This document shows, piece after piece, positions 28,735 to 46,499 of a DNA stretch of 64,000 nucleotides. The notes under the pieces were generated by a model. That model saw nothing but the letters and a program-made list of their open reading frames with translations, had not been told where the DNA came from and searched no databases. The stretch is from positions 67,140-131,139 of the forward strand of contig CANREZ010000002.1 in NCBI GenBank assembly GCA_947629745.1, given 5' to 3'. A program made the translations under genes and the position numbers. How positions within the stretch are numbered: position 1 is the stretch's first letter; the number at the start of each line of letters is the position of its first letter. The DNA is from an uncultured Clostridia bacterium. Its GTDB lineage: Bacteria > Bacillota > Clostridia > Christensenellales > UBA1242.

Positions 28735-28833
28735 GTTCGCGCAGGGGTGTGCTTGCACACCGAAGGCCGGAGCGAGTACGTTCGAATCGATTGCGAGAGC
28801 AATCACAGGGGGACCTGTCCGCCATTAGCGCCA
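28735..28833. repeat. Structured inverted echo of the tRNA-Thr 3' end with inserted hairpins
   Basis: gttcgaatc[gattgc-gaga-gcaatc][acagg-ggga-cctgt]ccgccattagcgcca vs tRNA gttcgaatcccgccattagctcca. Confidence 0.85.
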
Positions 28834-28839
28834 CAAAAA

Positions 28840-28915
28840 TGGAGCTAATGGCGGGATTCGAACCCGCGACCTCATCCTTACCAAGGATGTGCGCTACCTA
28901 CTGCGCCACATTAGC
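28840..28915 (-). tRNA. tRNA-Thr(GGT)
   Basis: gctaatgtgg...catcc-ttGGTaa-ggatg...gttcgaat...cattagctcca. Confidence 0.95.
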
Positions 28916-45807: not shown

Positions 45808-45901
45808 ATATAACTACAAGATAGAATGTGACATATCTCAAAATTATTAGTAAAAATGTGAGATATAAATTCCATGCAGGAAAACACATTTAATAAATAA
45901 A

Positions 45902-45979
45902 CAAAAAAAAAGAAGCAAGCAATTGCTTCTTTTTTTTGTTTGTATTAAAAGCATCTAGTAGCCCTAGATGCTTTTAATA
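45902..45979. terminator. Two adjacent terminator hairpins
   Basis: aaaagaagcaa-gcaa-ttgcttctttt and attaaaagcatctag-tagcc-ctagatgcttttaat. Confidence 0.7.
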
Positions 45980-46078
45980 TTTATGAGGATAAATTATCCC
46001 ATATATAGATAGATGTAATTAATAAAATTATCTCATGCTCACATATTAAATATTTTCGTCCAGAGGCCGTGTTAAGAA

Positions 46079-46216
46079 AGAGCGTGGTTCTCGGGATGTT
46101 TGTGTGATAACACAAATCCGGGGACCCGAGCGTCCCAAACCGTCTCGAAGAGACTGGTTGGGGGTTCGCTGCAAGATATTGCAGGGTGTGCGGATAGCAC
46201 ACAGACTCCCTCTGGG
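46079..46216. repeat. Structured inverted echo of tRNA-Arg with five inserted hairpins
   Basis: ggttgggggttcg (46156-46168) and actccctctgg (46205-46215) equal the tRNA T-arm/acceptor, split by [ctgcaa-gata-ttgcag]g[gtgtgc-ggata-gcacac]ag. Confidence 0.85.
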
Positions 46217-46242
46217 ATAAGTGAAGTTTTTTGATAAAAAAA

Positions 46243-46319
46243 TGGTGCGTCCAGAGGGAGTCGAACCCCCAACCTTTGGTTCCGTAGACCAACGCTCTAT
46301 CCAATTGAGCTATGAACGC
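46243..46319 (-). tRNA. tRNA-Arg(ACG)
   Basis: gcgttcatagctc...ttggt-ctACGga-accaa...gttcgact...tggacgcacca. Confidence 0.95.
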
Positions 46320-46499
46320 ACGCAAATATTTATTAACTATTAGACTATATACCAACATGACCTAATTGTCAAGTAAATATTTTTCATAACGCAAAAATTA
46401 TTCAGCAATTGTGCTAGCCCTAACTAAATTTCGCGTCAAAACTATTGACTAGGGAAATTGTTTTGCTTAAAATTAAAGAAAGGTAAAAGGGTGAGCATA

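Follow-up and report, generated by a model that had tools for sequence, protein, structure and literature searches.

A hairpin module bounded by tRNA-derived sequence behind a tRNA-Arg gene, and architecturally similar modules at other tRNA genes

Directly behind a tRNA-Arg(ACG) gene of an uncultured Clostridia bacterium lies a G+C-rich run of hairpins that contains pieces of the gene itself. What is this element, and how did it come to carry sequence of its neighbor? The locus is part of a 64,000-nucleotide stretch (the window, to which all positions given without a contig refer) that corresponds to positions 67140-131139 of contig C2 in genome G000. This genome, 973 kb in 19 contigs with 40% G+C, 42 tRNAs plus tmRNA and 95% completeness, belongs to a family of gut bacteria with ~1-Mb genomes in Christensenellales, whose named matches are 'uncultured Clostridia', 'Candidatus Onthoplasma' and 'Christensenella sp.' A preliminary description had taken the element for an inverted self-copy of the tRNA. 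The inverted tRNA pieces are indeed exact, but that picture is incomplete, since the far end is a direct repeat. The Arg element is a bounded module of ~190 bp that ends in a direct repeat of the 3' part of the tRNA. The reading that we favor, and hold tentatively, is that it is a cargo-less insertion or recombination module that acts at the DNA level and is attached to the tRNA 3' end.

The cognate gene occupies 46243..46319 on the minus strand (ARAGORN; Rfam RF00005, 67 bits). Directly 3' of its CCA end is an A/T-only palindrome (46226..46242; T run, GATA, A run), which is a weak terminator at best and did not score as one in the terminator search. Next, reading away from the gene, comes a 12-nt exact inverted copy of tRNA nt 58-69 (46204..46215, plus strand), which comprises the end of the T-loop, the 3' strand of the T-stem and the start of the acceptor 3' strand. 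It is separated from a 13-nt exact inverted copy of tRNA nt 46-58 (46156..46168, plus strand; variable loop, T-stem 5' strand and the first four T-loop bases) by a 35-nt insert (46169..46203) that splits the inverted T-loop and consists of two perfect hairpins, CTGCAA-GATA-TTGCAG (46169-46184) and GTGTGC-GGATA-GCACAC (46186-46202), with Watson-Crick pairs throughout. The 13-nt match and the two hairpins are thus as previously described; the other match, given before as 11 nt from 46205, is one nucleotide longer, and the insert measures 35 rather than 36 nt.

Beyond the 13-nt copy, CCCAAACC pairs with tRNA-derived GGTTGGGG in a hairpin (46134..46163) that encloses GTCTC-GAA-GAGAC (46142-46154), and a CTCGGG/CCCGAG stem (46090..46130) surrounds an 8-bp hairpin with a GATA loop (46098-46117). 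The recurrence of loops that had been pointed out is borne out, with GATA present in three loops of the module and the GAA triloop at 46142-46154. The tRNA D-stem and anticodon arm (46281-46301) have an inverted counterpart at 46076..46096 (plus strand); this weaker match, also remarked on before, is real but modest, with 76% identity over 21 nt and a local alignment score of 17 against a cut-off of 14. The far boundary (46057..46066, minus strand) is a perfect direct repeat (10/10) of tRNA nt 63-72, in agreement with the 10-nt echo already seen there: CGTCCAGAGG is found at 46057 and again at 46248, and the repeat lies 177 nt downstream of the tRNA. Within it, CCAGAGG (46060-46066) pairs with CCTCTGG (46209-46215) and closes the entire fold. 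The G+C-rich element runs from the A/T palindrome out to 46057. A direct repeat so placed is the hallmark of an insertion, or a duplication, at the end of a tRNA gene.

The 168-nt element folds far better than its shuffled versions. The z-scores for the two strands were -5.1 and -4.5 when folded as RNA, and -4.5 and -5.1 when folded as DNA. An error of assembly or binning is scarcely credible as the source of this structure. G000 is a metagenome-type assembly in 19 contigs, and repeats of this sort often end contigs, but a 394-nt contig from a second study (run X5, record 24) covers 45866-46267, that is, the entire element into the tRNA, with 22 differing letters and 14 gap positions. Because this contig comes from a different study, the element is not an assembly artefact, and the same architecture is present in many assemblies from different projects.

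Is the Arg locus exceptional within its genome? For each G000 tRNA flank that did not run into another tRNA, we summed the exact inverted matches of at least 8 nt to the tRNA within 300 nt and compared the sum with 300 dinucleotide shuffles of that flank; tRNA-Ile was left out because of short flanks or a neighbor. The downstream flanks of Arg(ACG), Thr(GGT), Asn, Tyr, Gln and Ser(TGA) exceeded all 300 shuffles, and that of Thr(CGT) exceeded 297 (3 shuffles reached it). Such echoes are therefore not random, and they were found behind 7 of 26 tRNAs and in front of none of 25 (best upstream p = 0.14). Local alignments revealed a common layout in which the tRNA is followed, usually after a good terminator, by inverted tRNA pieces, hairpins and, in 5 of the 7 echo-bearing cases, a direct repeat of the 3' end of the tRNA. 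This repeat starts 153 nt (Thr-CGT), 165 nt (Asn), 166 nt (Tyr; 21 nt long, beginning in the T-loop), 177 nt (Arg-ACG) or 201 nt (Ser-TGA) downstream.

The architecture recurs at other tRNAs, in line with the preliminary description. The inverted T-arm copies of Arg, Thr(GGT) and Tyr are split at or just past the T-loop by two hairpins, and that of Gln by one hairpin and an A+T-rich stretch. The Thr(GGT) echo (28738-28838; gene 28840-28915, minus strand) has inverted matches of 9 nt (exact) and 15 nt (14/15), and its two splitting hairpins have GAGA and GGGA loops; local alignments of its flank revealed no direct repeat of the tRNA end. The first hairpins of Thr(GGT) and Tyr have a common pattern, GAnTGC-nnnn-GCAnTC, which among 201 genomes searched was found three times in G000 and once in G088. 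At the tRNA-Tyr locus (C10:28039-28400, L047) the terminator and module are together duplicated in tandem over 186 nt, and the outer copy holds a 29-nt inverted anticodon arm with two mismatches.

Echoes of this sort might be neutral by-products of replication or repair: fold-back or template switching at a tRNA and its terminator hairpins could leave an inverted partial duplication that then decays, with neither function nor mobility. This would agree with an inverted copy that weakens with distance (13/13 and 12/12 near the T-arm, 76% over the D/anticodon arm), with a palindrome centre only 5-6 nt beyond the tRNA end at Thr(GGT), with an Arg scaffold confined to this species among the genomes searched, and with the absence of a mobilising enzyme from the profile searches of G000 (see below). 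However, decay would not make perfect G+C-rich hairpins in an A+T-rich spacer, with z about -5 on both strands. Nor would it be expected to place hairpins repeatedly in the T-loop or at its 3' junction (two in three echoes; one plus an A+T-rich stretch in Gln), to give Thr(GGT) and Tyr first hairpins that fit one pattern found also in G088, or to do so only downstream (7/26 vs 0/25). Related modules, moreover, have conserved and covarying scaffolds. We consider a neutral origin unlikely.

Those related modules come from the relatives of G000. Among other tRNA-Arg loci, 6 of 19 carry a downstream module and 6 of 19 an upstream mirror form, and a module is present at 3 of 18 tRNA-Tyr loci. In L002, L006 and L013 the repeat is 21 nt long and extends from the T-loop to the CCA, after which the terminator appears a second time; host and duplicate terminators are nearly identical (L006, Tyr). 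In some relatives the hairpins lie within the direct displaced tRNA copy rather than the inverted one. The upstream mirror form at tRNA-Arg combines nt 1 to ~43 of the tRNA, in direct copy, with a scaffold that is conserved and covaries, and then with an inverted piece of the anticodon stem and variable region. It was observed at L002, L007, L009, L015, L018 and L019, where the scaffold consists of TGCTCGG, a covarying stem, CCTGCGC and a CCCCAAAAAT...ATTTTCGGGG hairpin; tandem copies are frequent (L019 has three 88-nt units), and at several of these loci a strong promoter lies upstream of the entire array. Separately, an unannotated structured stretch ~180-700 nt behind tRNA-Trp in G088 (C25, L224) has a GGGGTCCCCGAAAAT...ATTTTTGGGG hairpin of the upstream-type scaffold and a GTTCGAAT motif. 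It also carries the hairpin common to the G000 Thr and Tyr echoes, has a direct repeat of the tRNA-Trp 3' end nearby, and gave no match to Rfam.

Taken together, these loci suggest a class with the following layout: an intact tRNA, a terminator or T-run, an inverted copy of a tRNA arm (X'), a hairpin scaffold, and, displaced from the gene, a direct copy of its outer part. Pairing is predicted between the inverted and direct pieces, such that either strand could fold into a closed multi-hairpin junction. The Arg module has this layout, which is a descriptive statement, the class having been defined in this analysis; by architecture, then, it would be a member. We searched Rfam 15 at gathering and E-value thresholds with the window and 11 related loci and recovered only tRNAs and chance hairpin matches. 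In particular, 46057-46242 gave no Rfam match at the gathering threshold or at E up to 1, and ARAGORN called no tRNA gene there.

The clearest view of how such modules behave came from one scaffold family, S_A, an 87-nt scaffold common to the Asn module of G000 and to modules at other tRNAs in other genera. Its pattern matched in 64 of 201 genomes of the family, compared to one match for a reversed-pattern control. In the loci fetched (some genomes were fetched twice) there were 102 pattern instances. We set aside 21 of them, from Streptomyces, haloarchaea and others, as chance matches because of their high G+C (at least 50%) and the absence of a tRNA context. The remaining 81 low-GC instances (73 distinct) comprise 49 that lie 42-336 nt behind a same-strand tRNA, 9 that precede the 5' end of an opposite-strand tRNA (Lys-TTT, Leu-AAG), 15 with no tRNA within 400 nt despite room for one, and 8 at contig edges. 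S_A stands beside 17 isoacceptors, with a direct repeat in 51 of 59 testable copies, and all 58 copies that have a tRNA neighbor are oriented outward from the tRNA body. The scaffold lies inside the 7-nt T-loop of the displaced tRNA copy in L079, L088, L096 and L102, and in L087 it occupies the anticodon loop. Ahead of it stands the entire arm in inverted copy, and this copy fits the local tRNA also when the species compared have different tRNAs; the echo associated with S_A thus tracks the tRNA.

There are signs that this scaffold family has moved, or been exchanged, among different tRNA genes. G000 itself has two full copies, at C7:41933-42019 (Asn; L049, L092, within the module C7:41855-42035; 87 bits) and at C16:13604-13690 (L053; 86 bits), the latter adjoining tRNA-Ile fragments at a contig end. 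The two are identical at 76 of 87 positions, compared to 58-59 of 87 between the G000 Asn copy and the Asn copies of the congeneric G001; the G000 Asn copy is at most 80% identical to any other aligned copy. Within genus g42, where the tRNA-Tyr is identical, a module is present in G091 and G042 and not in G200 or G177.

Several further copies deserve mention. In G060 (L227/L228; C10 end, C7 start) at least six S_A units are arranged head to tail, one every 100 nt, in the interval that separates the inverted arm from the displaced tRNA-Leu(CAA) 3' end; this array breaks the assembly and is a further sign of exchange or mobility. L094, L148, L167 and L179 have S_A copies with no tRNA nearby, in which Rfam finds nothing; in three of the four the 3' flank opens with a recurrent CTTTCCCCTTCAAA...TTTGTGGGGACCCC, which has a similar counterpart behind the tRNA-Arg gene of L003. 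A divergent S_A-like sequence was also seen outside the family and away from any tRNA, in a Lachnospiraceae assembly with 48% G+C (L142).

An alignment of 42 S_A copies contains four helices in which 92.4% of cells are paired compared to 75.2% in shuffles, with none of 500 shuffles as high; slid controls gave 41-48%. Compensatory changes were seen in 16 of 23 pairs, and the covariation is Watson-Crick only: G-T-type and A-C-type pairs are about equally rare (16 and 13 of 918 paired cells), with no strand bias. Equal rarity is what would be expected for selection on DNA or on both strands, rather than on a single RNA. These data, together with the similar folding of both strands as DNA, fit the earlier hint of a DNA-level role.

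Could the Arg module nevertheless function as RNA? It might be a 3' trailer that pairs with the 3' half of the tRNA to guide or delay processing, or the plus strand might encode a tRNA-like RNA. The gene has a promoter-like site (TTGACA-17-TATAGT, 46344..46372, minus strand), the sole one facing the element, and the first canonical two-way terminator-like hairpin past the module is at 45904..45937. Because there is no canonical terminator before it, read-through from the tRNA promoter is plausible. In addition, the folding z-scores are high, the plus strand folds more strongly as RNA than the other strand (-76.1 vs -59.8 kcal/mol), and the plus strand of the Thr echo has GAGA, GGGA and CTTG loops. 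Such loops are stable RNA tetraloop types. However, the promoter search detected no promoter-like site on the plus strand upstream of the Arg element, the stems of the module are all Watson-Crick and give no strand signal, and S_A has no G-U excess. S_A lies on the tRNA strand when downstream and on the opposite strand when upstream (49 vs 9), which is at odds with a function inside the tRNA transcript; a good terminator separates gene and module at most of the other echo-bearing tRNAs, and there is no Rfam match. On balance, we find an RNA function doubtful.

Two adjacent perfect hairpins of 15 and 16 bp (45904-45937 and 45943-45979) lie behind a 790-aa gene. A 125-aa ORF (45981-46358, minus strand) crosses both module and tRNA and is almost certainly spurious, and the module contains no plausible gene, the listed ORFs overlapping the tRNA.

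Larger elements are known to integrate at tRNA genes, and the module might consist of the attL and attR arms left by a kilobase-scale prophage or island at tRNA-Arg that has lost its interior. Displaced tRNA fragments are a known mark of such elements, according to PMC9897764, and relatives do carry integrase genes beside tRNA-Arg: one of 449 aa just behind tRNA-Arg(TCG) in G013 (C5, L046) and one of 463 aa just behind tRNA-Arg(CCT) in G014 (C3, L044). In L046 a T-arm-like inverted repeat lies between tRNA and integrase and mismatches its own tRNA. Yet module sizes are uniform, about 130-200 bp, and the gap between tRNA and scaffold in 58 S_A copies (42-336 nt, median 62) leaves no room for cargo. 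The near identity of the duplicated and host terminators (L006, Tyr) also speaks against an eroded island, as does a scan of 2.9 million viral contigs, which gave no match to the exact S_A pattern. Finally, att arms are not known to carry an inverted copy of the target arm. We therefore regard an island remnant as very unlikely.

How might a cargo-less module arise? We suggest that modules originate in the 7-nt loop of a tRNA arm, either the T-loop or the anticodon loop, through insertion or recombination. The event would duplicate the outer part of the gene and so keep the tRNA intact, and the folded structure of X', scaffold and repeat would be the recognized site. A bolder version, which we think improbable, is that the modules are a new cargo-less mobile DNA that homes to tRNA-arm loops, with the inverted arm copy serving as a self-updating DNA guide for a recombinase, possibly a lone Xer-like enzyme. 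In this version the element would bring along or produce the inverted arm, which, as a single strand, would splint the flanks of the inserted scaffold and rebuild the target duplex. If true, homing would explain the presence of one scaffold at 17 different tRNAs, at either gene end, without broken genes.

A number of observations weigh against a mobile or recombinational module at tRNA-Arg, and some of them concern the Arg sequence itself. With the S_A covariance model (R1, 87 positions, four helices), run with filters off and E up to 10, we obtained no match at the Arg module, and Smith-Waterman similarity to S_A is only at the level of shuffles; membership of S_A was therefore rejected. BLAST of the module against 40 relatives and 400 family genomes returned only low-complexity A/T matches, and exact patterns of the Arg scaffold gave no match in viral contigs (junction) or metagenome contigs (split Arg T-loop). 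The module has no cargo or integrase gene, so that of the Islander-type features it has the displaced fragment (the 10/10 repeat of tRNA nt 63-72) and not the integrase with cargo. Partial S_A copies at tRNA-Arg in L002 and L010 point towards the tRNA and break the outward rule. We found no pair of empty and filled sites with identical flanks; the spacers in genus g42 differ, so that insertion boundaries can be placed only approximately. Nor does the proposed event account for an inverted arm copy that fits every new target.

The search for an enzyme adds to these difficulties. G000 has a single tyrosine recombinase (379 aa, C10:4759-5307), which lies on a contig other than that of the Arg module; its length, and the presence of a counterpart in each of the 26 genomes searched, make it Xer-like. 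Profile searches of G000 gave no matches to PF00078 (RVT_1), PF01548 (DEDD_Tnp_IS110), PF01797 (Y1_Tnp) or PF00239 (Resolvase), and five S_A-rich genomes have no consistently shared extra recombinase (PF00589, PF00078, PF01548, PF01797, PF00239). In these five, PF01548 had no matches, PF01797 matched a single 24-position fragment in one genome, and PF00078 matched in one.

On these grounds we rejected three specific candidates. An IS110-type element with a bridge RNA would need a DEDD recombinase, of which there is none in G000 or the five S_A-rich genomes. For a palindromic element derived from IS200/IS605 there is no Y1 transposase in G000, and the 24-position fragment in one of the five genomes is the only trace. 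A copy made by a retroelement (a retron, a group II intron or a tRNA-primed process) would call for a reverse transcriptase, which G000 lacks, and the repeats include the terminator past the mature tRNA end. We also dropped an apparent likeness of the far end of the Arg module to the 3' end of S_A (TTTCTTAAC...), which neither the covariance model nor alignment supported.

Despite these points, a cargo-less DNA-level module attached to the tRNA 3' end is the reading we tentatively retain for the Arg element. About a quarter of the free tRNA 3' flanks in a 1-Mb genome carry such modules. Visitors known from tRNA sites are kilobase-scale elements that bring their own integrase, whereas these modules are gene-free. 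If the modules move, they would reveal an unrecognized way to target DNA hairpins or arm-shaped sites, with the target duplicated such that the essential gene survives; if they act as RNA or DNA structure, they would represent a new layer of tRNA gene organization in reduced genomes. A practical effect of the modules is to interrupt assemblies at tRNA loci, and they can be mistaken for tRNA fragments or pseudogenes. The modules are apparently an undescribed kind of small insertion at tRNA genes. The claim of an undescribed class stands insofar as Rfam gave no match and no description surfaced; it reaches as far as Rfam and a limited full-text literature search, which returned only classical integration literature and general MITE (miniature inverted-repeat transposable element) reviews. 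Should mobility and a guide-like role of the inverted arm be confirmed, the modules could prove categorically new.

How, then, do the modules compare to known systems? Integrases use symmetric sublocations of tRNA genes, among them the T-loop and the anticodon loop, as stated in bioRxiv 10.1101/2020.11.02.365908. The module repeats start in the T-loop or anticodon loop, and we propose insertion there, as at the sublocations of tyrosine integrases. In PMC4383910 and PMC9897764, displaced tRNA fragments mark integrated elements, and those in the latter that regenerate the gene are 9-23 kb and larger and carry an integrase. Like the attL/attR sites of tyrosine-integrase islands and prophages in tRNA genes, the modules combine an intact tRNA with a displaced direct copy of its outer part and can occur in tandem. 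Unlike them, the modules are only ~130-200 bp, have no integrase or cargo, and add an inverted arm copy and a G+C-rich hairpin scaffold; in addition, the same S_A scaffold is found at 17 isoacceptors and at both gene ends.

MITEs and REP/BIME palindromic repeats (PMC10969869 and PMC2229807) are likewise small, non-coding, hairpin-forming and multicopy. S_A resembles them in being multicopy, hairpin-forming and intergenic behind terminators. In contrast to them, the modules are strictly tied to tRNA arms, contain target-derived direct repeats of 10-47 nt plus terminator as well as an inverted copy of the target, and have no partner transposase that we could find. The Arg module differs further in being single-copy, its scaffold matching only itself by BLAST in its own genome, where a MITE would have many near-identical copies. 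With tRNA pseudogenes, tmRNA and viral tRNA-like ends the Arg module has in common tRNA-derived sequence from the T-arm, the acceptor and possibly the anticodon arm. However, the T-loop of its copy is interrupted, the acceptor 5' strand and CCA are missing, and neither ARAGORN nor Rfam called it as a tRNA or tmRNA.

The remaining comparison is with integron attC sites and the attP site of CTX phage. In these, an inverted repeat at the junction lies near the crossover, and one strand folds into a hairpin that rebuilds the target duplex; folded single-strand sites of this kind form head-to-tail arrays, and their structure is kept more than their sequence. The modules differ in that there is no integron integrase and that the target is a tRNA arm, not attI or dif. 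They are alike in having an inverted junction repeat able to fold on one strand and in forming arrays, and by analogy they may likewise be used as single strands.

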